A stretch of DNA of 64,000 bases. Source: an uncultured Gammaproteobacteria bacterium (GTDB lineage: Bacteria; Patescibacteriota; Microgenomatia; UBA8517). The number at the start of each line of letters is the position of its first letter. Positions within the stretch are counted from its first letter, which is position 1. The notes beneath the pieces were generated by a model that was not told the origin of the DNA, did not search any database, and worked only from the letters and a program-made list of their open reading frames with translations. A program made the position numbers and the translations under genes. Of the stretch, positions 11,708 through 30,531 are shown piece by piece. Where the stretch lies: NCBI GenBank assembly GCA_964599625.1, contig CAZRGC010000001.1, positions 51,019 to 115,018 of the forward strand. The letters are read 5' to 3'.

Positions 11708-13276
11708 TTAGAATCGCCAGTCTATCTCAATCTTGCCGTTACCCGCTCTTATCTCTTTAATGATTGCCCGAAGGAAGTGTTTTTTCTCTTCTAAGTTGGC
11801 ACTGTCCCATAAGATATCGAAGTCTTCCAATGATTTAGTAAATTTCTCCAATTCTTTGCGACGTTCGTTTACCAGTTGAAGCTTAGTTTTATATTCATCG
11901 GTAACCACATGGTATTTATTTTCTTCCTCGTCTAAACGCTTTATATTGGCTGCGTACACCTCAATTGAATCTATACCCGCCTCATAGGCTTCTTTTACCC
12001 GTTCACGGCGTCTATCGATGTCAGCTAGGTGTTTAGCCGCTAGGTTGGCGTCAGCTTCGAGGTTTTCGGTAATAGTGATGTTCTTATCCAATATCAGTCG
12101 TTCTCGGGCCGTAGGATTGTTTACAAGGTTCCTAATTTGGTTCAAAACGAACTCTTCTAGTCTAGTTGCACTCATTATCCGTCGTTGGCATATTCCTGTG
12201 TATTTATAGCCACCACACAAATATTCGTATGTTATGGTGTCGTTCCATTTAGGATTCTTTTTCTTTCGATTGTGATGACGGGTTAAATAGGTTACACCCG
12301 ATCCACAACGGATACATTTAGCTATGCCCGTTAATAGCCCACGGCTCATCCTTGCCCGTCCTTTTTGGGAATTTCCTCGTATCTTTTTCTCTTTTTGGGC
12401 TAATTTGAAGATTTCCTCAGTAATAATTGGGGCATGTTGTCCGTTTTCGACAATACCCTTATGATCCCTTAGTTTTCGTTGCTTGTTTTTGGCATAGTCG
12501 GCATGCCTCCATCCCCAAAGTACCTTTCCCGTATAGGTTTGGTTTTGTAGCATGTATTTGACTGCCTGCGCACGCCAATATGGGCCTCTAGGGGGTTTAA
12601 CCCCTTTTGTAGTTAGTTCAAACGCAATGCTTTGGGTACCTTTCCCTTTGATGTATTCGTCAAATATCCATCTGACGATTATTGCTTTTTCTTCATCAAT
12701 CTCAATTTTTCTCTGTACTTTGTTCTTTTCGTCGATCCAACGGACAATAACATAGCCGTAGGGGACGTTGTTTGGTATTTTTCCTGCCTTAGCCACTGCC
12801 AATTTACCCATTGTCATTCTGCGTCTGATCTTGTTGCGTTCGATTTCGGCCATCGTATCGCTAAAACCCTCTACCATAATGCCTAAATCGTCGTCTGTGG
12901 GATCGTAAAGTTTTGGATCTCGGGGTTCTACGGGAGTAGCTACGGAGTATGTTTGGATGAACATTTTTTTCAAGTCATCCCTAGCCTTGGTAGCATACGA
13001 TTTGTTACGGGCAAAACGATCAAAATCTTTGACGACTACTAGATCGAATTTGTAATCTGACGCGTCCTGCATCATTCTCTGGAAACCTAATCGTTCCTCG
13101 ATTAAATGTCCGCTTTCTACATCTTGATAGGGATCGGCCACTAATTCCCAGCCGTGATCGGCTATAGCCTTTTTACAAACTCGAATCTGATCTTGAATTG
13201 ATTCTTTCCCGTCGGCTTGTTCTTTTGTGCTAACACGGGCGTATATGACGGCCCGAATCTTAAATTTATTTTCCAT
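11708..13276 (-). CDS. large serine recombinase (integrase)
   Basis: N-terminal resolvase catalytic domain AVIYARVSTKEQ, then a recombinase domain and a Cys-rich zinc-ribbon region (CIRCGSG...C...C), then a C-terminal coiled coil. Confidence 0.85.
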   Translation of the reverse strand: MENKFKIRAVIYARVSTKEQADGKESIQDQIRVCKKAIADHGWELVADPYQDVESGHLIEERLGFQRMMQDASDYKFDLVVVKDFDRFARNKSYATKARDDLKKMFIQTYSVATPVEPRDPKLYDPTDDDLGIMVEGFSDTMAEIERNKIRRRMTMGKLAVAKAGKIPNNVPYGYVIVRWIDEKNKVQRKIEIDEEKAIIVRWIFDEYIKGKGTQSIAFELTTKGVKPPRGPYWRAQAVKYMLQNQTYTGKVLWGWRHADYAKNKQRKLRDHKGIVENGQHAPIITEEIFKLAQKEKKIRGNSQKGRARMSRGLLTGIAKCIRCGSGVTYLTRHHNRKKKNPKWNDTITYEYLCGGYKYTGICQRRIMSATRLEEFVLNQIRNLVNNPTARERLILDKNITITENLEADANLAAKHLADIDRRRERVKEAYEAGIDSIEVYAANIKRLDEEENKYHVVTDEYKTKLQLVNERRKELEKFTKSLEDFDILWDSANLEEKKHFLRAIIKEIRAGNGKIEIDWRF

Positions 13277-15821: not shown

Positions 15822-17111
15822 TCAATTACTGTAAAACCAATCCCATTCTGGGTTATCTACTTCTAAAATCTTACTCTTTAGCATTTTATACACTCCATCC
15901 TCTTTGATTGTTTGCCATGTGCCTTCGTAGTAATGGTAATCTACCTCGCCATCATTCCAATTTTTCGTTGAAAACTTAACAAATACTGTGTCGTCGGAGT
16001 TTTCAAATGGTTCGGTGTGAATGACATCAACATCTAGTATATCCGTGAACCTGTTTGTCCATTCCTCATAGTTGGTTTTCTTTAGATAATCGGTGCTTAG
16101 TAGATTGAATCCGTCCTGCATTCTTCTCGCCTTAAGATATGTGTAGAATGCCTCAACGGCTTTTTCTGGTGACTCTGAGGGATCTACTTGTATTTTGGTT
16201 ATATTTTGATCGGTAAAACTAGGAACAGCCGATCTTGCCCAGTCGCCGTCAATAAAAAGCGATAAACCCGCAAGACTAAGCGTGTTAATTCCTACGACTT
16301 GGCCACACTGATCTAATAGTGGCCCGCCACTCATGCCCTGAACCAAGCTAATATCCGTTTGAATGTAAGCCACAGGCATTTGTTTAGATTTTCTAAAATC
16401 CACAAATCTACCCTTAACAACAGTTGCATTGCCAACCAGATCAGTCCCCAAAGGATAGCCCGCAGCAATAAGCGGTTCATCAGCATGTAAGACTACACGT
16501 TCGGGTAAAGGCAAAACCATGTCTGGATATATATTGTCGGTAAATAGCACTGCCATATCCTCATCCTTGTTACCAATAATCTTATTAGGTGTGACAAAAT
16601 TCCCATCTGGGAAAATGATCTTGGGGCTTGGCTCGTCAGCTATAACATGGAAGTTAGTAATAACCTGATCGGGGGCAATAAAAAATCCTGTTCCTTCTGA
16701 ATACCCTCCAACTACTCGAACTACTGATTTTTGGATGGTATCTCTGGCTCCGATTGAACACAAAAATTTTCCATACCAGCCGTACTGCGTTCGCAGATAA
16801 TCGGCGATGACGAATAGGGAGGCTACCATGTAAGCAACAACACCAATGACAAACAATGATTTTAAGAAATTCTTTAGGCTTTTGAAGGGGTAAACGAAAG
16901 TTTCAAAAAAGATTTTGATCAGGGCAATAATAAATTTGATTGTGAATTTTACGATGTAGTAGGTGGTATAGGTTACAAGTTTGATGGGGAATTGATAAAT
17001 GGGGAATAGTAAGCGTTTGAAATAGGCCTTTAGCCGAGTTGTAGTATTTTTATAAGTATCCGAAATTTTTCGAGATAGCCTATCGAATTGTTTTTCAAAT
17101 ATGCTTATCAT
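15822..17111 (-). CDS. membrane-anchored trypsin-like (S1/DegP-type) serine protease
   Basis: N-terminal hydrophobic segments. Catalytic triad context: His in VITNFHVIA, Asp in EDMAVLF, Ser in GMSGGPL. About 130-aa C-terminal extra domain. Confidence 0.7.
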   Translation of the reverse strand: MISIFEKQFDRLSRKISDTYKNTTTRLKAYFKRLLFPIYQFPIKLVTYTTYYIVKFTIKFIIALIKIFFETFVYPFKSLKNFLKSLFVIGVVAYMVASLFVIADYLRTQYGWYGKFLCSIGARDTIQKSVVRVVGGYSEGTGFFIAPDQVITNFHVIADEPSPKIIFPDGNFVTPNKIIGNKDEDMAVLFTDNIYPDMVLPLPERVVLHADEPLIAAGYPLGTDLVGNATVVKGRFVDFRKSKQMPVAYIQTDISLVQGMSGGPLLDQCGQVVGINTLSLAGLSLFIDGDWARSAVPSFTDQNITKIQVDPSESPEKAVEAFYTYLKARRMQDGFNLLSTDYLKKTNYEEWTNRFTDILDVDVIHTEPFENSDDTVFVKFSTKNWNDGEVDYHYYEGTWQTIKEDGVYKMLKSKILEVDNPEWDWFYSN

Positions 17112-19591
17112 TTCGTTTTATTTGTAATGATCTGTTGCACGACTTGTAAGTCATTTTCATTAAACATCCTAAATCGTACAGAATTGTACTGATTATCACG
17201 GACTAAAATAGATTCTGGTTTTGATAACCCTTCATTTAGTATTTTTCTTTCCTCAGGTGTGGAGGAACCAAGTTCACCATATACCCAGTGATTTGCATAA
17301 TAATAAAATAACAACAATTCTCCATCTTCCCTTTTAATACTATGGTACGATCCTGCTCCACCTTTTGAGATGTATGCCTTACCATCGGGAAACGCTTTAT
17401 CAACCCACTCTGGAATAGTTTTTACTGCCTGTTTCACAAATTTACTCTGAACTCTTGCGAGTGTCTCTTCCTCCGTTTCGGGTGGTTTAGTAACTCTTAC
17501 CTTTACATCATCTACATCTTCTTCCTCACCCTTAACACCCCTCAAAACTTGGGAAAACCACTCAATTGCTGCCTCAGCTTCTCTTTGCAAAACAAAGTTG
17601 ATTTCCTTAATGTGTTTTACGGCATTACGGAAATCTTTAAGAGTAATGAATCGTTTTTCAGTTTCATACTTGGAACCAAAGAATTGCTCGAACTGATCCC
17701 AATTCTTTAGAATGAGGTTTGAGTAATCCATAATGTCGCATTGACACAGACGATCGTACGAATCCAATTTTTCTTCAGTGACAAAAGGATTCTTTCTCAA
17801 ATACTCGGCAATTTTTCCTTTAGCTTTTTCCTGTATATCCCCAGGAATTGCCTGATTCCAATAATCTTTTCCGAATTTGTTTGTAAGTTGGCTATTAATC
17901 AGAAGTCGCAATTTTAGTTCGATATCGTCCAACGCTTTGTTTGCATTAACTCCCAAAATTTGAATAATCTTGGAACCTGTTAGTCGCTCAAATTCCTTTT
18001 TGATTAATTCGGAACGTTCTTTGATAAACATTCGATAGTCGTCCTGTTGAATGGCATCTGAGTATTTAATGAGATGTGTTTCCAAAGTATCGCTAAACTC
18101 GGAATTTTCGCTTTGATAATGGGCAAAATAATCGCTTGGTTTCTGATCGAGAATATCTTTATTGAGTTCGGCAGGAATAAAACAGAAATTGGCTATTAAA
18201 TTTTCCCCACCAACTTTGTTACGTTGTAAGTAACGCTTCGGGAAAATGTGATGTTTCTCAGGGCTATTAAAACTTGAATAGTATTTATGATCCATTGGGA
18301 TAATGCCGTTTGCTTCAAAATGTCTAGGGTTTCTACTTGCCAACATACAGAAGATAGCGTTTCTAAGTGCGGATTTTGTACCAATAGTTGTAGTAGCTAT
18401 TTTGTCTTCATCCGCCGTAATTGTGAAATTGATTTTTACATCTTTGTTGTTCAACAATTTATCGAATATTTCTCTTCGATCCTCACCCATCTTGCTTTCC
18501 ATTGCCGCCGTATACCTTTCGCTTAGAGCTGCCTTCCAAAACCATTCATGTACTACGTCTGTCATATCCTTGGATAATGCTCGCCCATCTGTTTTGAAAT
18601 ACAAGTAAGCTAGCAAGGGGATGAAGGAAGGGTAAGGAGTAAATTCAAAGATTCGTACACCTAAGTTTGCAGATAGATGTTCAACAGATAATTCAATCGC
18701 ATTGGAAATTTCATCCCAATTGTCCTTTATCTCATCCCGTTTCAATTGCAATTGGTAAATTTTGCTGCAAAATCCTTTTAAGATCAGAGAAATGGCATGG
18801 GTGACAACCTCGGGAGTAATGTCTCCAAATCCTTTTGATGCAATTTTTTCTCGTAGTTCGTTGTATTTTTCTTTAAGATCGAAATCCTCACCCCAAGTAC
18901 TAGCAACTACCAAGTCGAATAGAGAAAGTTTTTTACCACCCTGATTGATACGTTCAAAGATAACACTCGCATTATTTAGTTCGACGTTGTATACAGTCAC
19001 AACGCTGAGAGGATAGGTGGTAAAAATCCGATGACATTCCATAAACACTTCCTGTCGTTCGGGAGACATTTTGCGAAACAATTGCATATGATCCTCTCCC
19101 AACACTTTGTATAGGGGGATATATCTGTCGCTTTCTCTCTTTACTTCAAATACTGATTGGTTACCATTGTCGTCGGGTTCTTTTTTGTAGTAATCCAAGT
19201 CTAGGCAGATTTGTGAACAGTCTACTAATTTTGTTTTATTGCCGTCCTTGAATTCAACTCTGATTCCATACCAAGCCGCATAAAGTGAGCAGATGCGTTG
19301 TTGCCCATCCAGGATGAATTTAATTTTTTCATCAACTCTTGGTTTGGGAGGTGTGATTCCAAGTTCAGGTAAGTCCCGATAAAAAAGGTTGTATTTGCCA
19401 GTAGTTTCCCAAAGGAAAAAACTACCGATTGGATATTCTTTGTAGATACTATCCAATAAAGCCACAATCTTGCTTCGTTCCCATACAAAATCCCTTTGAA
19501 ATCGAGGAACACGCAAGGTACCCTCTTTCAGGTATGTAAGTAGTGAAATGATTTGTTTATTCCCTTCGGATTCTATTTTTGGCAATTTCAT
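17108..19591 (-). CDS. GmrSD/BrxU-like type IV restriction-type enzyme (DUF262 + DUF1524)
   Basis: N-terminal DUF262/ParB-like motifs RFQRDFVW and LDGQQRICSL. C-terminal DUF1524 His-Me finger EKHHIFPKRYL...GENLIANFCFIPAELNKDI. Confidence 0.8.
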   Translation of the reverse strand: MKLPKIESEGNKQIISLLTYLKEGTLRVPRFQRDFVWERSKIVALLDSIYKEYPIGSFFLWETTGKYNLFYRDLPELGITPPKPRVDEKIKFILDGQQRICSLYAAWYGIRVEFKDGNKTKLVDCSQICLDLDYYKKEPDDNGNQSVFEVKRESDRYIPLYKVLGEDHMQLFRKMSPERQEVFMECHRIFTTYPLSVVTVYNVELNNASVIFERINQGGKKLSLFDLVVASTWGEDFDLKEKYNELREKIASKGFGDITPEVVTHAISLILKGFCSKIYQLQLKRDEIKDNWDEISNAIELSVEHLSANLGVRIFEFTPYPSFIPLLAYLYFKTDGRALSKDMTDVVHEWFWKAALSERYTAAMESKMGEDRREIFDKLLNNKDVKINFTITADEDKIATTTIGTKSALRNAIFCMLASRNPRHFEANGIIPMDHKYYSSFNSPEKHHIFPKRYLQRNKVGGENLIANFCFIPAELNKDILDQKPSDYFAHYQSENSEFSDTLETHLIKYSDAIQQDDYRMFIKERSELIKKEFERLTGSKIIQILGVNANKALDDIELKLRLLINSQLTNKFGKDYWNQAIPGDIQEKAKGKIAEYLRKNPFVTEEKLDSYDRLCQCDIMDYSNLILKNWDQFEQFFGSKYETEKRFITLKDFRNAVKHIKEINFVLQREAEAAIEWFSQVLRGVKGEEEDVDDVKVRVTKPPETEEETLARVQSKFVKQAVKTIPEWVDKAFPDGKAYISKGGAGSYHSIKREDGELLLFYYYANHWVYGELGSSTPEERKILNEGLSKPESILVRDNQYNSVRFRMFNENDLQVVQQIITNKTK

Positions 19592-19593
19592 AT

Positions 19594-20322
19594 TTATTTA
19601 ACCTTTTTGATAAAACCTAAATATTTATCTACATCCAAAGCAGGAACAGAGCCAAGTTGTCGAAGTTGTTCAATTAGTTTGAGTAAAAAGAACGCTAGTA
19701 TTGTGGCTCCTTTTTGTTCAAATATTTCTTTCTCGTTTACAATCTTTATTCCGTAGCTTAAGCAAACGACAAAAGATAATGCCGAACCTAATTTAACGTT
19801 CTCGTATGAGGGCTTACTTCCGTGTTCTTTGGTTAATATCCCTCCAAATATATTAAATGGTTCCTTTTTGTTTTTTCCGAGAATATGAGCGAAGCTGGCA
19901 GACGTTTTTTTCAATTCTTGAACACTTTTAAGTTTTTTGATTGCATATTCAAGGTTCGACTTGTTTAATTGTTGTTTGACTTCAAAAACGGCATAAACTC
20001 CCTCCGATGGTATATAAACAACATTTTCTCCCCGAAAAATAAATGGGGTGAAATGCCTATCATAAATAATGATGTCAATTTGTTCACTTATATTTCCTTT
20101 ATGATCTACCACAAAACCATTGTCCACGCTGTACCTTTCTGGTAAATAATTTCGTAGGAGTCCTATCCAATTCAGTTCCGTTTCGTTGCCCTTTGCCGAT
20201 GGATGATATATTTCATCAATCTTGCTCGACAATTTAAGTCTCATTTCTTCATCGAGAGCATTAAATAGTTTTTGCATGTTGATTTTTTTAGACATAGTTT
20301 TTACCAAACAATTTGATTCCAA
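19594..20322 (-). CDS. PD-(D/E)xK restriction-endonuclease-fold protein, NucC-like candidate effector
   Basis: EQIDIIIYD ... AVFEVKQ gives a D ... E-x-K arrangement. Size about 233-242 aa. The real start is probably the in-frame ATG at 20295 (MSKKINMQ), which removes the 22-nt overlap with the upstream NTase gene. The NucC resemblance is from memory of that family, not a search. Confidence 0.4.
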   Translation of the reverse strand: MESNCLVKTMSKKINMQKLFNALDEEMRLKLSSKIDEIYHPSAKGNETELNWIGLLRNYLPERYSVDNGFVVDHKGNISEQIDIIIYDRHFTPFIFRGENVVYIPSEGVYAVFEVKQQLNKSNLEYAIKKLKSVQELKKTSASFAHILGKNKKEPFNIFGGILTKEHGSKPSYENVKLGSALSFVVCLSYGIKIVNEKEIFEQKGATILAFFLLKLIEQLRQLGSVPALDVDKYLGFIKKVK

Positions 20323-21074
20323 TTTGAGTTTTTTATCGCTTCTCTTGCTTTATTTTTTACAGCACTTTTTTCTGTTTGTGTTAATAGATCAGAAAGGATA
20401 TTTCCCGAGTTGGCAGGATCGACTAAATAGGAATCTAAAGGATTATCGTTGTATTTAGCCAGTTCCGTTAAAACATGCCACGCATTGTTTCCTAGTTTGT
20501 CAATTCCAGTAGGGTAAAATTTCAGGATGTTAGTAACTATTAAGTATTCAAGATAGATTGATGGAAATTCAAGTTTGTTAAGTTCTCGCCACACCTTAAG
20601 GATTTTTATTTCATTCGTCCTACCCGAATTAGAAATGTCGTCTATATGTTTTTGAATATTAGTCTGTTTCCTCGTGTCTTGCTTAGAAACATATAGCCAA
20701 TGATCGTTAGTGTATCCAGGTTGTTTCCGTGCAGGTGTAACGTCTACCATTAAGCCGTTAAGGTTTAATCTTATGGAAACATTTTGTTTTCTAACACCAC
20801 TATAAATACTACTGATTTTTGAATATAGTGATTCATAAATCCCTTTTAATCCACCAGTATTTTCATTGCAATTGCTAGTTAATGAAACGAGATAATCTAC
20901 ATCTGACGCAATTGATATAGCTGTACCTTTAGCTCGTGATCCTGAGTCCAAAATATCTAAATAGCAAGTATTTGCCCATGTCTTTAGAATTGATTTCAGA
21001 GTGACAATTGAACTCGAATAGGGTGATAAGTTTCGTGCCTGGTATTTTAATAAAATTTGTTCAAGATATGTCAT
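20301..21074 (-). CDS. CD-NTase/SMODS-like nucleotidyltransferase
   Basis: SGSRAKGTAISIASDVDYLV matches GS...GT...SDhDh. Downstream LMVDVTPAR matches the third-Asp DVhPA motif of the OAS/cGAS/CD-NTase families. Confidence 0.5.
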   Translation of the reverse strand: MTYLEQILLKYQARNLSPYSSSIVTLKSILKTWANTCYLDILDSGSRAKGTAISIASDVDYLVSLTSNCNENTGGLKGIYESLYSKISSIYSGVRKQNVSIRLNLNGLMVDVTPARKQPGYTNDHWLYVSKQDTRKQTNIQKHIDDISNSGRTNEIKILKVWRELNKLEFPSIYLEYLIVTNILKFYPTGIDKLGNNAWHVLTELAKYNDNPLDSYLVDPANSGNILSDLLTQTEKSAVKNKAREAIKNSNWNQIVW

Positions 21075-21075
21075 A

Positions 21076-24000
21076 TTATTTTTCTTCTACAATCGCAATT
21101 TCCTCTGGAGTCAGATCGTAAAGTTCATAAATTTTTTGATCAATATATGTTTCTAATTTACGTATTTCTGTATTTTCAAGATTTATGTTCTTAGATAATT
21201 TCAATATTTCATCCACAAGTTCTATGATAATATTCTGTTTAGCTGGCGGCTTCGGAATGATAAGTGAACCCCTTACCGAGGAAGGATATGTGTGTGAAGT
21301 AGATCCCTGTAAACTTTCTGTAGCAAATCTTTTTCTGTAATAAAATTGCTGCAATTTTGACATCAGAAAAGCTAGCGCATATTTAAGATCTAATTTTTCT
21401 TCTAATAGCTTGTAACCTGAAAAATTAGTTTTTAACTCAGATCCATTAAGCGAAGCGTAGGGGACTACTAATACATTCCCATCATCTGTAAACATTTTTG
21501 AGTTATCATATGCAGCAGCAATTCTATGCCCTTTATCAGATACTTTTCGAATCGCTATTTTTTCATTTTCAAACAACTCTGGACTTCTCGATCCATACAT
21601 ATCTTCTTTTCGATAGTCTAGCCATAAACCTCGATAAGACACATGCCATCTATGGACATCCTTTCCCTCAAAAAACCTTTTTGCATTGCCAACAGGAACG
21701 TTGTTTACGACATCACTTTTACTAAATTTACCCTTTACTTTACTTGAGGGTTGAACACCATAGTTCACATAAAAATAGTTGCCAAATCTTGCAGATTTAT
21801 TTTCAAGTTTTTTGAGTAGATCTTCTTCAGTATTATTAATTGATAATACAAACTGGTGTGTTGGTTGTTGTAGCCATAATTTATTATTTACTGTATTTAA
21901 CAGAACTATTTCACCATTTGTTTCTTTGTTGCCAAAAATATTTATTGAATAGTTTTTTAGTACTCTCTTGGTGGCTACAAATACAGTTGTTCTTCTAGAA
22001 ACATTTTCAAAAACATTAATATCTGTAAACTCTAAAATATTGTCTAATGCCATGTTGTTTAATAAAAACTCTCTTACAGCTTTAGCGTATTTTTCTTTTA
22101 ATATTGGGTTAGGGACGATGAATGATATTGCCCCATTGAAGCCAAGTATTTTATGTCCAAGCGCAACAAATGCGACATATAAGTCCCAGTGTCCAGTTAA
22201 AAATGGATATTCCTTTAATCCAGCTTTAATAATTTTTCTCATTTCTGGATCGTCTTTTTCCATTTGCCACGCGCTCACATACGGTGGATTTGCTATAACC
22301 ACATCAAATCCACCTTTGTTTTCAAATACCTCGCTGTAATTTAATTTCCAAAGGAAAAAGGGACGGATGTTGGCTTTTTTATATTTTTCGACTTGCGTCA
22401 TCAATGATTCTTTTCCTTGTTCCCGAAGTGTGGCCTCGATAAGTTCCCAAGTTAGGGATTCTATTCTTTTTTTGATCTGATCTTTTTCTTTTTTATGTGA
22501 TGTATTGAAAAATTCTTTTTGTAACCGTTTCAAATCTTTAGCCTTTTCTTTAGCTTCACTTTCCTGATCGAATAGTCCCGTGTTCTCAATTGTCGGTTTT
22601 GGTTTGTCGGTTAATTTTTTTAACGCCTTATTATTCTTTTGTAACTCGGCCTCGATTTGTTGTTTTTTGATTCCTGTAAACTCTCCCTTTTGGTACAGTT
22701 GGACAAACTCCCGTGACAACTCACTTATTTTTGCCTTCAAACTTTCGATTTGGGCCGTATTGTCAAACACTGATTTCGTGAACAAATCCTCGTCAAATAG
22801 TTTTATTCCTTCAAACTCTTCCAATAGGCTATTGCCTTGCATGATTTTGTAATCTAGGTTTGGTAGTGGCTTGATTTTTTTAATATCTTGTTCGTCAACG
22901 ATGAGCGATAGCCATAAACGGAGTTTGGCTATTTCAGTAGCCCCAGGATCGATGTCTACCCCGTATAGGCTATGTTGGATCGCATGGTGTTTGAACGCAT
23001 ATATTGATCTGTCGCCATCTACAAAGTAGCTAGAAATGGTGTTTCGTACCCGTATAATCTCTGTCATCATCCCTACCAAAAATGCCCCCGAACCGACGGC
23101 GGGATCGCATACACGGATACTTGCCAATGCGTCATCTATTTGTTTGGCGTTATTTCTAATACTTTCTGGTAATTTATAGGAATAGGTATCGGTTTCCTCG
23201 CCGATCTCGGTAACCCTTGTGTCATGTTCTACTGCTGCCTCGCCAATTTGAACCAATGTCTCAATATCTTCCTTTTCAGCCTTTCCCTCTAGTTCCGTTG
23301 CCAAATAGTTCACCAAACTTTCTTGGCACATGTAGTGGACAATCTCACGGGGTGTATAGTACGTGCCTTTTGATTTTCTATCCCTAACCTCTAGTAGGTT
23401 CTCAAAAACCTTACCTAACATCTCGGGATCGACGGCTACCTCTCGCTCTAACGGCTCATCTTCTTTGACTGTAAAATTGTATCTGTCAAAAATATCTAAA
23501 ATCCCGTCTCCAGTATCACCTTCTTTTGTGGTGTTTTTATTTGAAAATAATTTATTAGGCAAATTTATTTGAGTGTCAGTCCATGAATAACCACTAATAG
23601 GATCAAATAATCCTCCGTTGAGGAAAGGTATTTTACATTTGAACAAAGGGTTAAAATGATCGACATCCGATCTATCCCTAGCTAGAGCGTCGTAAAAAAG
23701 TGGTTCAAGAACGTCGTTGAAAAAATTTTCGTAAGCAAGAACTTTTCCATCAAACAAGTCTCGCAAAAATGTTTTCGATCCAGTACCCCAATCTTTACCC
23801 ATTTCTACTCCGAACCAGCCCTTCTTCTGTAAAAAGTATAAGAAAACAATTTGTCCAAGCAATTTTTTAGTAAAATCTATAGTCTCAATATTTTTATCTT
23901 TGAAATCGTTTTCAATCTGAGGATCGGCCTTGACGATTTTATCCAATGCCTCTTTTGTTTCTAGGAATAACTGTTTGTATTTCTCGAAAAACTCTTTGGT

Positions 24001-24588
24001 AACAACCTCGACGCTAAACACTTTTTCCAAATCGGTTAGGGTAGGGGGAGCATCTTCTTTTATAAGTGTCGGTATTAATTGTTTTTGGGCCGTATGAGTG
24101 TTTTCGTTTTCGCCAACCAAGAAGGAAAATCGTTTGGCAGGGGTTAATTCGGTGATTGTTTTAAGTCGCCCTGCATCAGATTTGCCCAATCGGTATTCCA
24201 TTTTGACTAGCGATAACCGCCAGTCGGTAAGATTTGGTGGCACAAAAGCAACTATTGCCGCATCTTTTGCGTCTCTATTTTTAAGATAATCCGCTACAAA
24301 ATTTCTTTGCGTAGTTCTAGCTCTTTCGAGAGTTTCATTTTTTTCAAGGTAGACAGCAAGTATATCTATTTTGTTGTTATCAGAATCAGTGAAAGTTCCA
24401 AAGCGTTCATATGTTTTTATTGTAGGGTTAGTTTTTTTGAATTTATCTTTAACATATCCATGAGCATGGAATGCTTTTGTTTCGTCGAATTTCCTAAAAA
24501 GATTTTTTGTGAAGATCAAGAAGCGATCCCGATCGTAAGGGTTTTCAAATGTACTTTTGACTAGGTTGATTGCTGATTGTTTGTTCAT
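21076..24588 (-). CDS. large gamma-class N6-adenine DNA methyltransferase (PglX/Eco57I/DrmMI-like)
   Basis: Motif I VCDPAVGSGAFLVGMM. LYGVDIDPGATEIAKLRLWLSL. Motif IV VIANPPYVSAW. About 450-aa N-terminal and about 350-aa C-terminal (TRD-like) extensions. Confidence 0.85.
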   Translation of the reverse strand: MNKQSAINLVKSTFENPYDRDRFLIFTKNLFRKFDETKAFHAHGYVKDKFKKTNPTIKTYERFGTFTDSDNNKIDILAVYLEKNETLERARTTQRNFVADYLKNRDAKDAAIVAFVPPNLTDWRLSLVKMEYRLGKSDAGRLKTITELTPAKRFSFLVGENENTHTAQKQLIPTLIKEDAPPTLTDLEKVFSVEVVTKEFFEKYKQLFLETKEALDKIVKADPQIENDFKDKNIETIDFTKKLLGQIVFLYFLQKKGWFGVEMGKDWGTGSKTFLRDLFDGKVLAYENFFNDVLEPLFYDALARDRSDVDHFNPLFKCKIPFLNGGLFDPISGYSWTDTQINLPNKLFSNKNTTKEGDTGDGILDIFDRYNFTVKEDEPLEREVAVDPEMLGKVFENLLEVRDRKSKGTYYTPREIVHYMCQESLVNYLATELEGKAEKEDIETLVQIGEAAVEHDTRVTEIGEETDTYSYKLPESIRNNAKQIDDALASIRVCDPAVGSGAFLVGMMTEIIRVRNTISSYFVDGDRSIYAFKHHAIQHSLYGVDIDPGATEIAKLRLWLSLIVDEQDIKKIKPLPNLDYKIMQGNSLLEEFEGIKLFDEDLFTKSVFDNTAQIESLKAKISELSREFVQLYQKGEFTGIKKQQIEAELQKNNKALKKLTDKPKPTIENTGLFDQESEAKEKAKDLKRLQKEFFNTSHKKEKDQIKKRIESLTWELIEATLREQGKESLMTQVEKYKKANIRPFFLWKLNYSEVFENKGGFDVVIANPPYVSAWQMEKDDPEMRKIIKAGLKEYPFLTGHWDLYVAFVALGHKILGFNGAISFIVPNPILKEKYAKAVREFLLNNMALDNILEFTDINVFENVSRRTTVFVATKRVLKNYSINIFGNKETNGEIVLLNTVNNKLWLQQPTHQFVLSINNTEEDLLKKLENKSARFGNYFYVNYGVQPSSKVKGKFSKSDVVNNVPVGNAKRFFEGKDVHRWHVSYRGLWLDYRKEDMYGSRSPELFENEKIAIRKVSDKGHRIAAAYDNSKMFTDDGNVLVVPYASLNGSELKTNFSGYKLLEEKLDLKYALAFLMSKLQQFYYRKRFATESLQGSTSHTYPSSVRGSLIIPKPPAKQNIIIELVDEILKLSKNINLENTEIRKLETYIDQKIYELYDLTPEEIAIVEEK

Positions 24589-27500
24589 TCACTTATTAGA
24601 TATTCTGACAATATAACTTCCCTTGGCCCTGCTACCTGAGCCGAACTTTCAGCCAGAGTTTCTTTGAAAAACTCCGAGGGAATACTGACTTTGAGAATCG
24701 ACAATAGCTTTAATGGGTTGAATTTTTCACCTAATTCTTTATTTAGTAGTTTGAGTAAGTCCTTGGCAGTCCGTTTTGGCAATGCCCCTTCCTCTAAAAT
24801 CCTAATAACACTATTGATATATGCCTCGTCCTCGTCTGTAAAACCTTTGAAGTATTTAATCTCTTTAGATCGGAGTATTTTGACTATTTGAACCAAACTA
24901 TCTCGGCCTTTTTTGGATTGAACCTCCTGTGCCTCTTCTGTCGTTGTTTCGACAAACGCCTGTTTGTTCATAGCTAGTAGATCGTAGAAATCCTCGCCGA
25001 TATTTTCCCGTTTGGTATCTTTGTTAACCTCCAATAGTTTTGCTGCTGTAATGAAGTCTAGTTCGTTGGCTTCCTTGTCTGCCGAATAGAACTTTTGCAA
25101 TTTGCCCTTACGGAAAAATGTCAGCAGGCTATTATGTTTGCCGTCGCTATATTTTCTTGCGGTTCTGGCTTTTTTAGGTAGTCTTTTGATCGTTTCAAAC
25201 AGATCTGGATTGTTATCCCGAATATCACGAATGATATGTAGATATTTCAAATCGCTCTCTTCGCTCTCATCCTCGCCAGTAATCGTTTCCTTAGATGTAA
25301 GTTTTAACCAAAGATCGTGGGATTTAATTTCCTCACCTTCGGTTAGTAGTTTTGCATCTGCACCAAGTAGTTCAATAAATGCTTCAATTTTTGCTTCGGC
25401 TGCCTCGTTTAATTTGATCTGATCGTTTGATTGTTGTGTTGGGAAGAAATTGTAGGTGTAAATCTTTTCGTGTTTAGTATCGACTCGATTGATACGCCCT
25501 GTCCGTTGCATCAGCCTGGTTGGATTCCAGGGAATATCATAATTGATGACGCAATTGGATCGATGTAAATTGACACCCTCTGACAGAACTTCTGTTGCGA
25601 TCAGGATTCGGTAGTCATCGTGTGGAAATCTGGCTTGAGCGTCAAAATTCTCAATGACTTTTTCTCTAATGACTGCCGATGATCCTCCGTGATAGGCCAA
25701 TACCTGATCGGGGAATTTCTGGCCAAGGTTTTTTTCTAGATACTCGGCGGTTTCCTTTGATTCGGTAAAGATAATAAGTTTGTTGTCTTGTAATACCTTT
25801 TGGCTTGAAAGTGCATCAATAAATTTTGCTAGTTTAGGATCTCGATTGATCCGACGCCACATTTTTGCAATATCTCGCAAAATATTTAAGTCGTTTTCCA
25901 AATCTGTCTTGAATGTATCCTCAAATTCTGTCGATGAGTAGCGTTGCGCCTTATCTTCATCTATTAATTTTTGAATGGCTACTTCATCATCATTGTCTAG
26001 TAATTCAAATATCTTACTGATATGTTTTTTGCTGACATAAACATTTCCTTTATCAAATTCGGCAAGGAAACTCTCGTATGAGGATATAAACCGATCCAAT
26101 GTATTCCTAAATGCAAAGAAGCTACTTTCAAGCCGTTTAACTAAAAGGATTTTCATAAATCGGCCCATGTTCTTTTGTCCTTGTTCTTCACCTTGGGGAA
26201 TATCGCCTTTGTAGTACAGAAGTGGCATATAACGGGCGTATTTGAATTTTTGGGCGATCAACTCAATTGTCTTGGTGAAAATTTCATTCTCTTCATCATC
26301 TAATTCGTAAAACAATGGCTCGGGATCGGCCACATCGGGGAATCGTAGTTTTTGTTGTGCCAAATCTTTGCCAAAATACTTAACAATTTCCGATCTGGTT
26401 CGACGAACCATCAAATACTTAAGTACCTTTTCCCGAATATCGCTTGCGTTTTGACGTACTGTTTCCAAATACTCACTGCGGTTAGTTTTGCGATCCAAAT
26501 CTTTAAGTTTTTTCTCCAGTCCCGAGAAAAACATTTCAAGGTTGGGTAGGTTTGGAATAGTACTCTTTTTGGCCTTTTGGAATAGTTTAATCTGGCTCAA
26601 TATATCCTTGGGTGAATTGTTGTAGGGTGTGGCCGTAACCAAAATGACTCTTTTCCCTCGGCAAATCTGGGCTAGTTTTTCATAGGTAACATTATCTTCT
26701 GTTCTAAATCGGTGGGCTTCGTCAATAAACACATTTTTATATTTATCGGTGCCTCTCTCTGCTAATTTTTCTAATTTTCCTAATGATTCAAAATCTGCCG
26801 ATACCTTAAAATCTGAAAACACGTTTGGCCATGAACCTGGGTTATCACGATCGAGTAGCACAGGTGGGGCAATGACTAAATTTCGGCCATCAAGTTGATT
26901 GGCAAGCATGGCAGAAATGTATGTTTTACCCAAACCAACAACATCGGATAGGAAAACACCCCCATACTCTTCTAAAATCTTTTTAGCGTTCAATACGGCT
27001 TGTTCCTGATACTCTAGTTTTCTGAATTTCTCTGGTGTGTATTTATAGAATACGTCTTCGGTACGGCTAATCTGATCCTTGAAGTATTCGTATAGGAATT
27101 TTAAGTAGAGTTGGTAGGGAGTAATTGTATTGTTTAGCCATGTCTTGTCATTGACTGTTTCAATATATTTTTCGGACACATCAACGGAGTCTTTCCAAAG
27201 ATCGTTAAATTTATCCTGTGCGAATTTATGATCTGAAGCAGTCTTTAGTTCAACGTTGAATTCTAGATTGTCAGCTAGTCCTTTTTGGGAAAAATTGCTT
27301 GATCCCGTGATAACTCTCCCAACGTCCCGATCTCCCTCTTTGAATGTGAGAATGTATAGTTTGGCGTGGATGTTTGCCGTAGGATATGCCCGAATCTCTA
27401 ACTTGCCGCTTTTAATCCATTCAATGAATTTTTGAACACCTTTTTCGATTGTTGGGGTGTCTTCCGAATCTTCAAGCTCCGATGCTATTAAATTGGAAAA

Positions 27501-27773
27501 CTCTTCTTTAGCCTCTACATGGGAAAAACTCAAACTTAATTGCTCTTCGGCTGCTCTAATGTTTTCAAGAGTATCTCTTCCTGTGCCTATACCTATTAGA
27601 ATTCTGATTTTTTCGGTGTTTTCGAGTACAGGGTAGAGCTTATAAAACCCGCTAGAGTAGAAATAACCAACCAGTACATCAAAATATCGGGTGTCTTTTA
27701 TCAAAACACGGAACCGCTCCAAAAGACTTTGATTGTTCTCGTTGGTTATGAATGTTAAATCTGTATTATTCAT
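24585..27773 (-). CDS. PLD-family nuclease domain fused to SNF2-family helicase
   Basis: N-terminal HKD motif HAKLYILTF...GRVITGSSNFS. SNF2 motifs GLGKTYISAML, DEAHRFR and LVTATPYNN. Helicase-C motif QRTGRINRV. Confidence 0.85.
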   Translation of the reverse strand: MNNTDLTFITNENNQSLLERFRVLIKDTRYFDVLVGYFYSSGFYKLYPVLENTEKIRILIGIGTGRDTLENIRAAEEQLSLSFSHVEAKEEFSNLIASELEDSEDTPTIEKGVQKFIEWIKSGKLEIRAYPTANIHAKLYILTFKEGDRDVGRVITGSSNFSQKGLADNLEFNVELKTASDHKFAQDKFNDLWKDSVDVSEKYIETVNDKTWLNNTITPYQLYLKFLYEYFKDQISRTEDVFYKYTPEKFRKLEYQEQAVLNAKKILEEYGGVFLSDVVGLGKTYISAMLANQLDGRNLVIAPPVLLDRDNPGSWPNVFSDFKVSADFESLGKLEKLAERGTDKYKNVFIDEAHRFRTEDNVTYEKLAQICRGKRVILVTATPYNNSPKDILSQIKLFQKAKKSTIPNLPNLEMFFSGLEKKLKDLDRKTNRSEYLETVRQNASDIREKVLKYLMVRRTRSEIVKYFGKDLAQQKLRFPDVADPEPLFYELDDEENEIFTKTIELIAQKFKYARYMPLLYYKGDIPQGEEQGQKNMGRFMKILLVKRLESSFFAFRNTLDRFISSYESFLAEFDKGNVYVSKKHISKIFELLDNDDEVAIQKLIDEDKAQRYSSTEFEDTFKTDLENDLNILRDIAKMWRRINRDPKLAKFIDALSSQKVLQDNKLIIFTESKETAEYLEKNLGQKFPDQVLAYHGGSSAVIREKVIENFDAQARFPHDDYRILIATEVLSEGVNLHRSNCVINYDIPWNPTRLMQRTGRINRVDTKHEKIYTYNFFPTQQSNDQIKLNEAAEAKIEAFIELLGADAKLLTEGEEIKSHDLWLKLTSKETITGEDESEESDLKYLHIIRDIRDNNPDLFETIKRLPKKARTARKYSDGKHNSLLTFFRKGKLQKFYSADKEANELDFITAAKLLEVNKDTKRENIGEDFYDLLAMNKQAFVETTTEEAQEVQSKKGRDSLVQIVKILRSKEIKYFKGFTDEDEAYINSVIRILEEGALPKRTAKDLLKLLNKELGEKFNPLKLLSILKVSIPSEFFKETLAESSAQVAGPREVILSEYLISE

Positions 27774-27795
27774 TTTCTTAATTCTCTTTTTTAAT

Positions 27796-27993
27796 TTACA
27801 CCTTAGGGTGTCTAGATATATATGCCTCTATGTCCGCCTTTCTATATCGACGATCTCCAACACCTCTACGTGTACCAATTCTTACCGCTTTTAGGATTCC
27901 TTGTCTATCCCAACGCCTAAGTGTTTGCGGTTTAACATTCAGGATTTTTGCTGCCTGATTTAATGTTAGTAGTTCCTCTAGTTCTGAATTCAT
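27796..27993 (-). CDS. excisionase/AlpA-family HTH DNA-binding protein (paralog of 13285-13512)
   Basis: LTLNQAAKILNVKPQTLRRWDRQGILKAVRIGTRR aligns residue by residue with the other HTH protein. It is the first gene of the 12-kb minus-strand operon. Confidence 0.6.
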   Translation of the reverse strand: MNSELEELLTLNQAAKILNVKPQTLRRWDRQGILKAVRIGTRRGVGDRRYRKADIEAYISRHPKV

Positions 27994-28329
27994 ACTAATT
28001 GTCTTTAATTGTACTAAATTGCAGGGAAAAAAGGTAGATTATCGGGTAGGGAAAATGGGAAGGGGATATATAATCCTTATCGGCGTTTTTTGGTAGTGTG
28101 CAAATGTGTAGACTCACAACTACACATTTAGCCTTAAATCGGAAGACTACATAGACTATATATAGTAGTTGGCTAGTATCCCAACATATATTTATTAGCT
28201 ATAACTAGGGATATTAATTGGTATCAGCTATACTAGTAGAAGATTCCGTCCAATTTCGATTGAGTATTTTTAAGTAAAATCGAGGGGAGGGAGTAGTAAA
28301 ATTGAAAATGTGGGGTAAGTGGATCGAAA

Positions 28330-28376
28330 GCTAGCATCATGCCAGATAGGCATGTGTGGTACCCTATATGCTAGCA
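28330..28376. promoter_or_regulatory. nested palindrome: GCTAGCAT ... ATGCTAGC enclosing CATGCC-agata-GGCATG and GGTACC
   Basis: Perfect 8-bp inverted repeat with a 31-nt spacer that contains a 6-bp stem hairpin. It lies between the island end and the 3' end of the MoxR-like gene. Confidence 0.3.
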
Positions 28377-28413
28377 TTTCAAAAAGTGCCATTTTCCCAA
28401 GAAGGCCCCTTAA

Positions 28414-30102: not shown

Positions 30103-30104
30103 GG

Positions 30105-30518: not shown

Positions 30519-30531
30519 AATACTTATTACA

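Follow-up and report, generated by a model that had tools for sequence, protein, structure and literature searches.

Probable modular organisation of a seven-gene defence array on a serine-recombinase island

Seven minus-strand genes lying head to tail at 15822-27993 of the window (the whole 64,000-nucleotide stretch of DNA analysed here) probably form a modular anti-phage defence array on a serine-recombinase island, likely co-transcribed and composed of three systems that are each capable of standing alone. In this reading, module 1 would be an RM-like pair consisting of a PLD-SNF2 helicase and an MmeI-like N6A methylase, headed by an HTH gene; module 2 would be a minimal type I CBASS, and module 3 would combine a BrxU-like GmrSD protein fused to HEPN with a membrane S1C-NTF2 protease. 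We infer that these modules act in layers rather than interdependently. The preliminary description of this DNA had placed all seven reading frames exactly, and its seven family assignments held up in Pfam and PADLOC searches and were then refined; strong full-length PADLOC matches to defence-specific models support the membership of these genes in defence families. Its characterisation of the genome as CPR-like agrees with the closest homologues of named origin (from Roizmanbacteria, Woykebacteria, Woesebacteria and Patescibacteria).

Counted upward from the protease end, the first and fifth junctions between array genes are overlaps of 4 nt each, the second and fourth are gaps of 2 nt and 1 nt, and the third, between NucC and the CD-NTase, is an overlap of 22 nt with the TTG start of NucC or a gap of 5 nt with its ATG start. 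The HTH and PLD-SNF2 genes are separated by a 22-nt spacer (HTH stop at 27796, helicase ATG at 27773); the earlier statement that junctions are 3 nt or less everywhere stands for five overlaps or gaps of ≤2 nt and fails for this spacer. With the HTH spacer excepted, five of five array junctions are ≤3 nt, whereas among the window’s 39 remaining same-strand junctions the share is only 23% (median 24 nt); the probability of this is ~6e-4 if junctions are independent. The packing is tight enough for the single transcription unit proposed previously, behind a 420-nt intergenic region, and suggests that the array is operon-like and probably co-transcribed.

The first gene (27796..27993, minus strand) encodes a 65-aa HTH_17 (MerR/excisionase-type) DNA-binding protein (Pfam HTH_17 4e-14; PADLOC mad1 4e-12), a probable transcriptional regulator of the array, and homologues are found upstream of the helicase in relatives L005, L051, L054 and L057. 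The non-coding leader 5’ of this gene (27994..28413, minus strand; 420 nt, from reading of the sequence) holds a perfect 10-nt inverted repeat (I6) at 28102-28129 and is presumed to be the promoter/operator region, from which the HTH protein would set expression. Promoter and terminator scans gave nothing above shuffled expectation. The large serine recombinase of the island that carries the array (11708..13276, minus strand) is confirmed by Pfam Resolvase, Recombinase and Zn_ribbon_recom matches and lies directly against the 3’ end of secA (8940-11705). Recombinases also adjoin the array in L005, L049, L054 and L143.

The PLD (HKD-type) nuclease::SNF2/SF2 helicase (24585..27773, minus strand; 1062 aa) matches Pfam PLDc_2, ResIII, SNF2-rel_dom and Helicase_C, as well as the PADLOC models C3a139 ‘HKD+Snf2’ (1e-46) and DrmD (9e-42). 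It carries the motifs H136-x-K138, GSSN157-160, GLGKT280-284 and DEAH351-354, none of which varies within the family; homologues fall into at least 7956 90% clusters, and the protein is predicted to be the restriction/translocase subunit of the RM-like core. The adjoining gene (21076..24588, minus strand) encodes a 1170-aa MmeI/Eco57I-like gamma-class N6-adenine DNA methyltransferase with a TaqI_C-type TRD, for which the best model is the REBASE-type type IIG family (PADLOC REase_MTase_IIG 2e-243; Pfam Eco57I, N6_Mtase, MmeI_Mtase and TaqI_C). The motifs LNGGLF323, YYTP410, DPAVGSG495 and NPPY767 are present, and the TRD segment (~21131-22274) is hypervariable. No solved homologue was detectable for the N-terminal 385 residues, nor could a nuclease motif be demonstrated in the N-terminus. 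Of the previous labels, ‘PglX-like’ was correct as to an N6A methyltransferase but loose as to family, the MmeI/Eco57I-like type IIG assignment fitting best, and ‘DISARM/BREX-like’ is also loose, as DrmA/DrmB, PglZ/BrxC and DUF499/DUF3780 are absent in Pfam and PADLOC searches. The methylase would mark a motif read through its swappable TRD, and unmarked DNA would be attacked by the SNF2 translocase, which would be driven by ATP and carries the PLD nuclease.

The PLD-SNF2 helicase and the methylase are an obligate and very widespread pair. Among 65 metagenome loci with enough downstream sequence, 60 have the methylase no more than four genes after the helicase (with genes between the two in 16 of the 60), and in the remaining five the contigs end within 1.5 kb. 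Pairing was also observed in 28 of 31 viral-collection loci, where it holds down to 30-36% helicase identity, and on cultured Thermus and Parabacteroides plasmids. The 3’ flank of the pair is a general hotspot for diverse, co-oriented, tightly joined defence cargo. The gene after a complete methylase is co-oriented in 37 of 39 loci and follows at a median gap of 2 nt (≤10 nt in 70%, compared to 42% of other same-strand pairs), and 31 distinct families occupy this first position across a sample of 37 loci. Lamassu-, Gabija- and PARIS-like genes are among the cargo, and the genes seen comprise LmuB/SMC, AriA, GajB with OLD-TOPRIM, AAA_13/PDC-S06, Cas4-like PDDEXK, GmrSD_N, radical SAM, Mrr, a KAP NTPase and a NucC-like protein. 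Beside helicases 89-95% identical to that of the window, the CBASS position is filled by an ATPase of the AAA_13 or the OLD family, or by unknown proteins of 285 aa or 763 aa. The helicase-methylase pair is probably the conserved ‘anchor’ of the array, and appended cargo, being co-oriented and tightly joined, would ride on the core’s transcription.

Close relatives are mosaics with one common breakpoint after the NPPY motif. Nucleotide homology to L049, L136, L051 and L054 in all cases breaks at window positions 22274-22277, just past this motif (catalytic motif IV), and homology between relatives restarts exactly at the protease start, 17113. Amino acid identity between L049 and the window is 97% for the helicase, 75% for the methylase (with an unrelated TRD), 97% for the CD-NTase, 98% for both NucC and GmrSD, and 72% for the protease. 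L136 shares the helicase (95%), the recombinase (92%, in the equal relative position) and the protease (89%), and in this relative OLD-ATPase cargo replaces CBASS and GmrSD. Recombination among relatives at the fixed point after methylase motif IV would exchange both TRD and cargo. The gene order recurs beyond the contig, in L049 and largely in L005, where HTH, helicase, methylase, CD-NTase, NucC, a PDDEXK nuclease (in the GmrSD slot) and protease follow one another and all parts are 65-70% identical to those of the window. At just 70% identity, the L005 helicase is no nearer to that of the window than those of many relatives whose cargo differs. Retention of the L005 block across substantial divergence could mean that the combination was selected for and not simply linked.

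The CD-NTase (20301..21074, minus strand; 257 aa) is a minimal CBASS cyclase with a full-length match to the PADLOC Cyclase model PDLC00803 (1.6e-82) and a Pfam SMODS domain, and alignment of the family shows no variation at G45-S46, D58-x-D60 and D111. The next gene (19594..20322, minus strand) encodes 242 aa from TTG 20322 or 233 aa from ATG 20295, the start used in public gene calls. Previously described as a PD-(D/E)xK nuclease of ~240 aa, the protein is indeed a nuclease, and its identity is sharpened to the CBASS effector NucC by PADLOC (‘Endonuclease (NucC)’ 6e-75; NucC 5e-48; Pfam DUF6602), with residues ID73-74 and E105-V-K107 fitting the NucC active-site pattern ID-x30-E-x-K. The CD-NTase and NucC therefore constitute a complete minimal (type I) CBASS. 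As in type I CBASS, they form a two-gene cyclase-effector unit with the GS/DxD/D triad and the NucC ID...ExK site; they differ in the unusually short cyclase and in the position of the pair, 1 nt after the methylase gene and without a promoter region of its own. In Pfam searches, no Cap2/Cap3 or HORMA/TRIP13 genes adjoin the pair. NucC comes after this CD-NTase family in 11 loci, and the two occur without other array genes in at least nine other genomes (L004, L006, L017, L027, L028, L036, L038, L040 and L043); more often (~28 of 45 loci), the CD-NTase family is instead paired with a ~175-aa upstream gene. Upon infection, the cyclase would be activated and its cyclic oligonucleotide (cA3 for characterised NucC) would yield the active NucC hexamer, which would destroy DNA in abortive infection. 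The CBASS classification is reportedly that of Millman et al. from 2020, and the account of NucC reportedly that of Lau et al. from the same year.

Downstream, an 827-aa BrxU/GmrSD-like type IV restriction protein (17108..19591, minus strand) consists of DUF262, a DUF1524-like region and, at the C-terminus, a HEPN extension. It matches Pfam GmrSD_N (7e-29) and, below cutoff, HEPN_Swt1 (1e-3), as well as the PADLOC models PDC-M55C (2e-45), HEC-05 (2e-41; residues 11-538 against 25-593 of 600) and PDC-M34B (2e-11; residues 553-681), and contains the motifs DGQQR95, HHIFP447 and R655-NAVK-H660. The original GmrSD/BrxU-like assignment is borne out and can be refined to a BrxU-like protein with a C-terminal HEPN domain. 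The last array gene (15822..17111, minus strand) encodes a 429-aa membrane-anchored HtrA/DegS-like S1C serine protease with a C-terminal NTF2-like domain (Pfam Trypsin_2 7e-21), a strong hydrophobic segment at residues 85-105, and the motifs His155 (NFH) and GMSGG259-263. Its AlphaFold2 model (pLDDT 81) has the RsgI9 S1C-NTF2 bi-domain as best PDB fold match (7sjy, E 3e-18), in keeping with the membrane trypsin-like protease proposed before and refining it to an S1C-NTF2 protein. Relatives of the protease are found with only a PDDEXK partner, a PDDEXK_1 nuclease (L137-140), with GmrSD and PDDEXK (L141), by itself (L146), or terminating other RM arrays (L184 and L186). Module 3 is probably a variant of this recurrent GmrSD/PDDEXK_1/protease set from which the PDDEXK_1 gene was lost, and its GmrSD-HEPN protein would serve as a type IV arm, with an added RNase domain, against modified DNA escaping module 1.

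The tight coupling at all five junctions, the one leader upstream of the regulator, and a gene order that is the same in L049 and nearly complete in the 70%-diverged L005 would also suit an integrated system in which the seven proteins are one functional unit and self/non-self discrimination by methylation, signalling by nucleotides, and nuclease/protease effectors are interdependent (e.g., the RM-like core or a GmrSD sensor triggers the CD-NTase, or the cyclic nucleotide controls more than NucC). We consider this unlikely, and the preliminary claim that the genes are fused into one novel interdependent system is not upheld: each module turns up in many genomes that lack the others, unrelated genes replace CBASS beside helicases of 89-95% identity, the first cargo position is held by 31 families in 37 loci, and only one of 45 genomes sampled through the CD-NTase contains the composite. 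Moreover, SAVED and CARF cyclic-nucleotide sensor domains were not recognised by Pfam or PADLOC in array proteins other than NucC. Further from the data still is an artefact or housekeeping origin (i.e., chimeric assembly, or a chromatin-type helicase, an HtrA quality-control protease and a tRNA/rRNA methylase), which is highly improbable even though the nearest curated families of the protease are HtrA/DegS-type and core relatives are annotated only generically in RefSeq. Misassembly is ruled out by recurrence of the junctions in four independent sequencing runs: the MTase/CD-NTase/NucC/GmrSD junctions are identical on contigs of three other runs (L001-L003), and L049, from a fourth, has the same six-gene order on a contig that stops 145 nt upstream of the helicase. 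The full-length defence-model matches (NucC 6e-75, CBASS cyclase 2e-82, type IIG 2e-243 and HEC-05 2e-41), the recombinase-island location, and a patchy, HGT-like distribution across phyla at ~68% identity also argue against housekeeping functions.

A different division of the region is possible, though doubtful. In this CPR clade, the HTH protein, PLD-SNF2 helicase and methylase, together with a nuclease of either the PDDEXK_1 or the GmrSD-HEPN kind and the membrane protease, may form a five-gene frame in which only what lies between the methylase and the nuclease-protease end, here the CD-NTase and NucC, is foreign and embedded sensu Payne et al. The window, L049, L005, L051 and L136 all have helicase-methylase on the 5’ side and PDDEXK or GmrSD followed by protease on the 3’ side, bracketing four different inserts, so that the protease might be part of this clade’s core; the return of nucleotide homology exactly at the protease start, and L054, whose locus runs from the methylase through two unknown genes to GmrSD and PDDEXK and then stops, point the same way. 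However, the protease family was found in none of 80 metagenome loci with 57-84% helicase identity and is therefore not a general partner of the pair, and in six other contexts the protease, with or without PDDEXK, occurs without the helicase and the window-type methylase. In L049, the protease diverges to 72% identity whereas flanking genes remain at 97-98%, and it was therefore exchanged independently.

The modular array is a variation on the known theme of embedded or appended defence genes. Helicase-methylase (Hma), BREX, DISARM and type I RM operons embed defence genes, including GmrSD-like HEC-05 (10.1101/2024.01.29.577857). Hma systems are DUF499-centred BREX-related (BR) systems, and the Type-2 BR helicase, like that of the window, has an N-terminal HKD/PLD nuclease (Payne et al. 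2024, 10.1101/2024.01.29.577857; Rakesh & Krishnan 2026, PMC12839542). The window shares with Hma/BR the core of SNF2-type helicase and N6A methylase and the nesting of very diverse, unrelated defence genes, including GmrSD-like HEC-05/BrxU, in the operon. In contrast, the DUF499 ATPase (HmaC) and DUF3780 are absent from the window and sampled relatives, the HmaA model matches only the generic C-lobe of the window helicase (1e-24), and cargo is here mainly appended 3’ of the methylase. Class 1 DISARM (DrmA, DrmB, DrmC, DrmD and DrmMI) has in common with the window a DrmD-type SNF2 helicase (PADLOC 9e-42; NCBIfam 146 bits), an adenine methylase (the window’s is similar to DrmMI, 2e-31) and a PLD nuclease domain as in DrmC, but the window lacks DrmA and DrmB (DUF1998), its PLD domain is fused to the helicase, and its DrmD score is far under the NCBIfam cutoff (146 vs 610).

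The BrxU-type HEC-05 model aligns full-length with the window’s GmrSD protein, which has DUF262 bearing DGQQR, a linker and a DUF1524-like His-Me region and which, as BrxU does in BREX loci, travels within an RM-like operon. It differs in ~290 aa of extra C-terminal sequence with the HEPN Rx4H motif (RNAVKH), in a nuclease motif of HHIFP rather than (D/E)HIxP (DUF1524 is not called by Pfam), and in the coupled membrane protease that comes next. In type ISP (LlaGI-like) and type IIG/IIL (MmeI-like) RM enzymes, nuclease, SF2 translocase and gamma-class N6A methylase functions come together with a TRD. The window core combines the same functions, and its methylase has the LNGGLF, YYTP and NPPY motifs and modular TRD of the MmeI family, but the functions are split over two polypeptides and the nuclease is PLD, not Mrr/PD-ExK. 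RsgI9 of Clostridium thermocellum (PDB 7sjy) resembles the window protease in the order of its parts, with a membrane anchor, then an S1C fold and then an NTF2-like domain; the window protein is without the anti-sigma domain, keeps the His and the GMSGG serine motif, and is found in the context of defence and RM islands rather than sigma-factor regulation.

Seven open reading frames on the minus strand filled positions 15822-27993 in the tight run that had been reported, and they matched the listed genes: an HTH protein, a PLD-SNF2 helicase, a methylase, a CD-NTase, NucC, a GmrSD-like protein and a protease. The helicase/methylase and GmrSD/protease genes overlapped by 4 nt, methylase and CD-NTase were separated by 1 nt, and NucC and GmrSD by 2 nt; CD-NTase and NucC overlap by 22 nt with a TTG start and lie 5 nt apart with the ATG start of the public gene calls. 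The preliminary description had placed every junction at 3 nt or less, which held for these five but not for the HTH/helicase junction, where a 22-nt spacer was found. Elsewhere in the window, a spacing of 3 nt or less occurred in only 23% of 39 same-strand junctions (median 24 nt), so the array is packed more tightly than the genome norm. Scans for consensus promoters and terminators across 13000-30500 gave counts not above expectation (48 vs 50 and 11 vs 14 in shuffled sequence) and are therefore uninformative on transcript structure; a single transcript for the array is thus probable on the grounds of gene spacing only. Identical methylase/CD-NTase/NucC/GmrSD junctions were present on contigs of three other sequencing runs, and in a fourth run the array order was kept on a contig whose helicase is 97% identical (locus L049). 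The recurrence of these junctions, and of the order in L049, excludes an assembly error as the source of the gene order, a possibility that the preliminary description had allowed for.

The first gene encodes an HTH_17 (MerR/excisionase-type) protein that also matches PADLOC mad1, and it is preceded by a 420-nt non-coding leader. Within the leader, at 28102-28129, two 10-nt arms form a perfect inverted repeat around an 8-nt spacer (AAATGTGTAG N8 CTACACATTT), approximately 110 nt upstream of the HTH start codon. The HTH protein may use this repeat as its operator, or the repeat may be the terminator of the gene cluster that lies upstream. That cluster, co-oriented with the array on the minus strand at 28414-33711, encodes a 562-aa AAA_5 (MoxR-like) ATPase, a 137-aa protein, a 702-aa vWA-domain protein, an 83-aa ORF and a 256-aa HipA/PI3K-like kinase. 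It resembles MoxR-vWA conflict systems, and PADLOC returned no match to it.

The helicase (24585-27773) has a PLDc_2 domain at residues 95-193 followed by SNF2/Helicase_C domains, and an N6A methylase gene (21076-24588) adjoins it. Its single PLD/HKD module (H136-x-K138, GSSN157) precedes the SNF2/SF2 motor (GLGKT280, DEAH351), and all of these motif residues are invariant across the family. Single-HKD nucleases form one active site by dimerising. A search of solved structures with the helicase gave generic SF2 matches only. The methylase had been labelled PglX-like, which did not stand: the NCBIfam PglX score was 77 bits against a cutoff of 500, and the best model was a REBASE-derived type IIG enzyme (PADLOC REase_MTase_IIG, 2e-243, 809 bits). 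Methylase and target-recognition domain (TRD) lie in one polypeptide (Eco57I/N6_Mtase and TaqI_C domains), which carries the MmeI-family motifs LNGGLF, YYTP, DPAVGSG and NPPY and a TaqI_C-type TRD. The N-terminal ~385 aa are highly conserved. A 36-sequence profile of this region, searched against solved structures in the PDB, matched only a methylase motif X region; direct phmmer searches returned methylase cores only, and no PD-ExK motif was assignable.

The next gene was confirmed as the CD-NTase/SMODS-like enzyme that had been proposed. The 257-aa protein matched the PADLOC CBASS cyclase model over its full length (1.6e-82), and its catalytic residues G45-S46, D58-V-D60 and D111 were invariant in 24 homologues. 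What had been described as a PD-(D/E)xK nuclease of roughly 240 aa is indeed a nuclease, and can now be specified as NucC (PADLOC, 6e-75). Its active site, I73-D74 ... E105-V-K107, fits ID-x30-E-x-K, the PD-(D/E)xK-type pattern of NucC. Neither Cap2/Cap3 (type II) nor HORMA/TRIP13 (type III) genes were found beside the pair with Pfam or PADLOC. Judged by their sequences, CD-NTase and NucC are a complete minimal type I CBASS, in which activation of NucC by a cyclic oligonucleotide is predicted. Characterised NucC enzymes are activated by cA3.

The GmrSD/BrxU-like assignment was borne out by a GmrSD_N match (7e-29), the DUF262 NTPase motif DGQQR at residues 95-99 and an alignment over 540 residues to the BrxU-type HEC-05 model. 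The putative His-Me site reads HHIFP (447-451), with His replacing the acidic residue of (D/E)H(I/V)xP; the HEC-05 alignment spans this region, and DUF1524 was not reported by Pfam. Beyond that alignment, the C-terminal ~290 residues include an HEPN-type Rx4-6H motif (RNAVKH, 655-660). Pfam HEPN_Swt1 scored 19.7 bits, below its cutoff of 27.5, and PADLOC PDC-M34B matched at 1.7e-11. The last gene encodes a membrane trypsin-like protease, as had been stated (Trypsin_2, 7e-21), with H155, D185 and S261 (GMSGG) invariant in 41 homologues, a strong hydrophobic segment at 85-105 and a weaker one at 50-76. Its AlphaFold2 model (pLDDT 81) consists of an S1C protease followed by an NTF2-like domain, and the best match among solved structures was to RsgI9, an anti-sigma factor, in its S1C-NTF2 sensor module (7sjy, E 3e-18); the rmsd to the DegS fold was 2.5 Å. 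The protease shares its fold and catalytic triad with HtrA/DegS S1C enzymes but lacks their C-terminal PDZ domain, its C-terminal domain being NTF2-like as in RsgI9, and its NCBIfam HtrA-family scores were far under their cutoffs. Across the array, the Pfam, PADLOC and NCBIfam searches showed the original labels to be largely right, and sharpened them.

We consider it likely that the array comprises three systems in series on one probable transcript. Gene content, intact motifs, recurrence, mosaicism and junction statistics were observed directly; co-transcription, the activities of the proteins and their independent, layered action are inferred. In the restriction-modification (RM)-like core, the exchangeable TRD of the methylase would define the motif in which this enzyme marks adenines, and the SNF2 motor with its PLD nuclease, probably dimeric with one active site, would translocate along and cut unmarked DNA. 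How strongly the array is expressed is probably controlled by the HTH protein, perhaps via the leader palindrome. The type I CBASS would cause abortive infection through NucC, and the BrxU-like type IV enzyme, with a putative added HEPN RNase domain, would hit modified phage DNA that evades the first layer; the membrane protease is counted with this third system.

The core would function like Hma, BREX and DISARM systems but belongs to none of them, because DUF499/DUF3780, DrmA/DrmB and PglZ/BrxC are absent. With respect to class 1 DISARM, the array had no DrmB/DUF1998 match, and the DrmA model matched the SNF2 protein in its generic helicase lobe and nowhere else; NCBIfam DrmD gave the helicase 146 bits against a cutoff of 610, and PADLOC DrmMI matched the methylase partially, with 107 bits compared to 809 for the type IIG model. 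For BREX, neither PglZ nor BrxC was found in the array or its flanks, and PglX scored below its cutoff. Hma/Type-2 BREX-related (BR) systems combine an HKD-Swi2/Snf2 helicase with an N6-MTase and are defined by a DUF499 ATPase and DUF3780, the latter as a stand-alone gene in 98% of them (PMC12839542). The array does contain an N-terminal HKD nuclease on a Swi2/Snf2 helicase and an N6-MTase. However, DUF499 (HmaC) and DUF3780 were absent from the window and from ten large or recurrent neighbour proteins of relatives, which matched KAP NTPase, SMC-like ATPases, NYN, DUF4062-HATPase_c_4, YhcG and ORF6N instead; the common ~161-aa gene between helicase and methylase in relatives is NYN, not a stand-alone DUF3780. 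Assignment of the core to Hma/Type-2 BR was rejected on this absence. No name for the two-gene pair was found in PADLOC, NCBIfam, RefSeq annotation or the literature searched.

The helicase family is large (at least 7956 clusters at ~68% identity, across many phyla), and the methylase accompanies it. Among 80 sampled metagenome loci, 65 had enough downstream sequence to be judged; the methylase lay 3' of the helicase in 60 of these, and the other five contigs end too early. The two genes were directly adjacent in 44 loci and separated by one to three genes in 16, the embedded genes encoding NYN RNase, DUF4062-HATPase_c_4, YhcG nuclease or ORF6N. The pair persisted at 30-36% helicase identity (28/31 loci, phage-like IMG/VR contigs). 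Plasmids from Thermus oshimai and Parabacteroides distasonis carry it as well, under RefSeq names that are generic only. The gene following a complete methylase was co-oriented in 37 of 39 loci with a median gap of 2 nt; the gap was 10 nt or less in 70%, compared to 42% of other gene pairs. This first post-methylase gene belonged to 31 different families. Cargo proteins, i.e., those encoded 3' of the methylase, matched Lamassu LmuB/SMC, PARIS AriA, Gabija GajB and OLD-TOPRIM, AAA_13/PDC-S06, Cas4-like PDDEXK, GmrSD_N, radical SAM, Mrr, KAP NTPase and a NucC-like protein, and many had no match at all.

Close relatives of the window's helicase share one frame that is filled differently in each, and a common breakpoint was seen among them. 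L049 is a mosaic of the window: helicase, CD-NTase, NucC and GmrSD are 97%, 97%, 98% and 98% identical, respectively, the protease is 72% identical, and the methylase is 75% identical with an unrelated TRD. In L136 (helicase 95%, recombinase 92%), the methylase is followed by a 221-aa protein, an OLD-family ATPase, PDDEXK and the protease; in L051 (helicase 92%) by an AAA_13 ATPase, PDDEXK and the protease, adjoining secA as in the window; and in L054 (helicase 89%) by unknown proteins of 285 and 763 aa, GmrSD (86%) and PDDEXK. More distant loci carried proteins of 379, 1215 and 117 aa (L143, helicase 73%) or a 51-aa ORF and then a different CBASS, with a SAVED effector, on the opposite strand (L142, helicase 72%). 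Nucleotide homology to L049, L136, L051 and L054 ends in every case at 22274-22277, directly after NPPY (aa 767-770). It picks up again either in the methylase tail, at 21131, or where the protease gene begins, at 17113. Position 22274-22277 is thus a recombination breakpoint common to these loci, with the conserved catalytic part on one side and the variable TRD and cargo on the other.

The array is one instance of a wider pattern, in which a very common helicase-methylase pair is followed by a hotspot for cargo; here the whole lies on a serine-recombinase island. It is quite possible, and we propose it tentatively, that the PLD-SNF2/MmeI-like pair is a widespread RM-like system that acts as a docking platform, with the TRD and the coupled 3' genes swapped as cassettes at a fixed point after motif IV. 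If this is true, the 3' flank would be a rich source of new defence genes through "guilt by appending", with the CPR pair of PDDEXK_1 and membrane S1C-NTF2 protease and the unannotated 1000-1200-aa proteins as candidates.

The CBASS pair and the protease each have a distribution of their own. With one genome sampled per species, CD-NTase and NucC occurred together in ~11 of 45 CD-NTase loci, nine of which had no other array gene within 10 kb. Among these nine is the closest relative, a Roizmanbacteria MAG (79% identity). In ~28 of the 45 (among L007-L042), the partner was not NucC but a conserved upstream gene of ~175 aa (cluster f3), presumably an alternative effector. Because most CD-NTase and NucC loci lack the other array genes within 10 kb, the two genes are an independent mobile pair. 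The protease family has at least 2074 homologues at ~70% identity, chiefly in CPR lineages, and was absent from all 80 metagenome helicase loci, so the protease was rejected as a universal partner of the core. It was found beside PDDEXK_1 alone (L137-140), with PDDEXK and a GmrSD that is 41% identical over its full length, in a locus lacking helicase and methylase (L141), by itself in a complete Woesebacteria genome, in a region that looks mobile (L146), at one end of an array of LexA-like and type I-like RM genes whose other end has PDDEXK (L184, 7001-14411), and as the last gene of a ResIII, PDDEXK, DUF2254 and 351-aa array (L186, 44-8293). On account of these contexts, the GmrSD-protease pair of the window is a variant of a recurrent GmrSD/PDDEXK/protease set without the PDDEXK gene. 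In L184 and L186, PDDEXK_1 and the protease lie at or near opposite ends of other restriction-type CPR arrays, a hint that these two genes form a frame of their own in which others become embedded.

The preliminary description had read the seven genes as a single novel, fused and possibly interdependent system, an interpretation that is not supported. A truly interdependent set of seven genes is unlikely because each module also occurs apart from the rest and the content of the CBASS slot changes freely. The gene order was conserved only in part: it is the same in L049 and composite in L005, but the CBASS slot is filled otherwise in L051, L136 and L054. Some selection may nevertheless hold CBASS and protease together with the core, and the strongest case for this is L005 (labelled uncultured gammaproteobacterium), the only composite among the 45 CD-NTase loci, in which HTH, helicase, methylase, CD-NTase, NucC, a Cas4-like PDDEXK_1 in the place of GmrSD, protease and serine recombinase follow one another. 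Its shared parts are each 65-70% identical to the window, whereas many equally or more similar helicases carry other cargo. Two overlapping ORFs (604 and 574 aa, 6007-9527) make up the L005 methylase, which may reflect a frameshift or pseudogene, an error in the sequence or an enzyme that truly has two subunits.

Somewhat more credible, although still improbable, is a frame of five genes (HTH, helicase, methylase, nuclease and protease) in which CBASS is embedded. Such a frame fits the five closest relatives but not the helicase family at large, and it is further weakened because the protease is exchanged on its own. An artefact or a set of housekeeping genes is contradicted by the evidence in hand and can be given practically no weight. 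Three systems in series is the reading we retain as likely.

The array is a compact example of how an immune system is assembled, from a conserved restriction-like core followed by interchangeable second-line modules for abortive infection and modified-DNA restriction, probably under one regulator and moving on a recombinase island in ultra-small CPR genomes. Most of its interest attaches to the core pair, to the fixed point of recombination and to the recurring pair of nuclease and protease, and less to the combination of these seven genes; its practical value lies more in the general pattern. Defence genes nested in Hma, BREX, DISARM and type I RM operons have been used for discovery, GmrSD-like HEC-05 included (10.1101/2024.01.29.577857). 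Known defence genes fill the slot behind the very common core pair, along with many unknown genes, so that new systems can be sought there in the same way. The recurrent nuclease and membrane-protease pair is a defence candidate typical of CPR bacteria.

As had been proposed, a serine-recombinase island carries the array, and the genome is CPR-like. The island adjoins the 3' end of secA in the window (8940-13276) and in L051 (22699-23183), suggesting a shared integration site; in L051, no recombinase was found between protease and secA. tRNA and Rfam scans of the window gave no match, and no attachment-site tRNA was found. Beside the serine recombinase in L143 (5406-8123) and L136 (13631-13972) are DUF5659, a DnaG-type zinc-ribbon primase fragment and an AAA_25 ATPase, which suggests that the carrier is a replicative integrative or prophage-like element. 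Two patches of the window, at ~6000-8000 and 54000-58000, have 50-55% GC against a background of ~40%, and each has long ORFs on either strand. Neither rRNA nor any other Rfam family was detected in them, and paralogous island-related gene sets were rejected, as the encoded proteins have no mutual similarity and no Pfam match. A cultured example of the same architecture is present on the Parabacteroides distasonis plasmid NZ_OY725763.1 (L183, 7204-20787), in the order HTH, RNA-binding-domain, SNF2, N6 methylase, hypothetical, TIR-domain, hypothetical and AAA, and would be a convenient experimental model.
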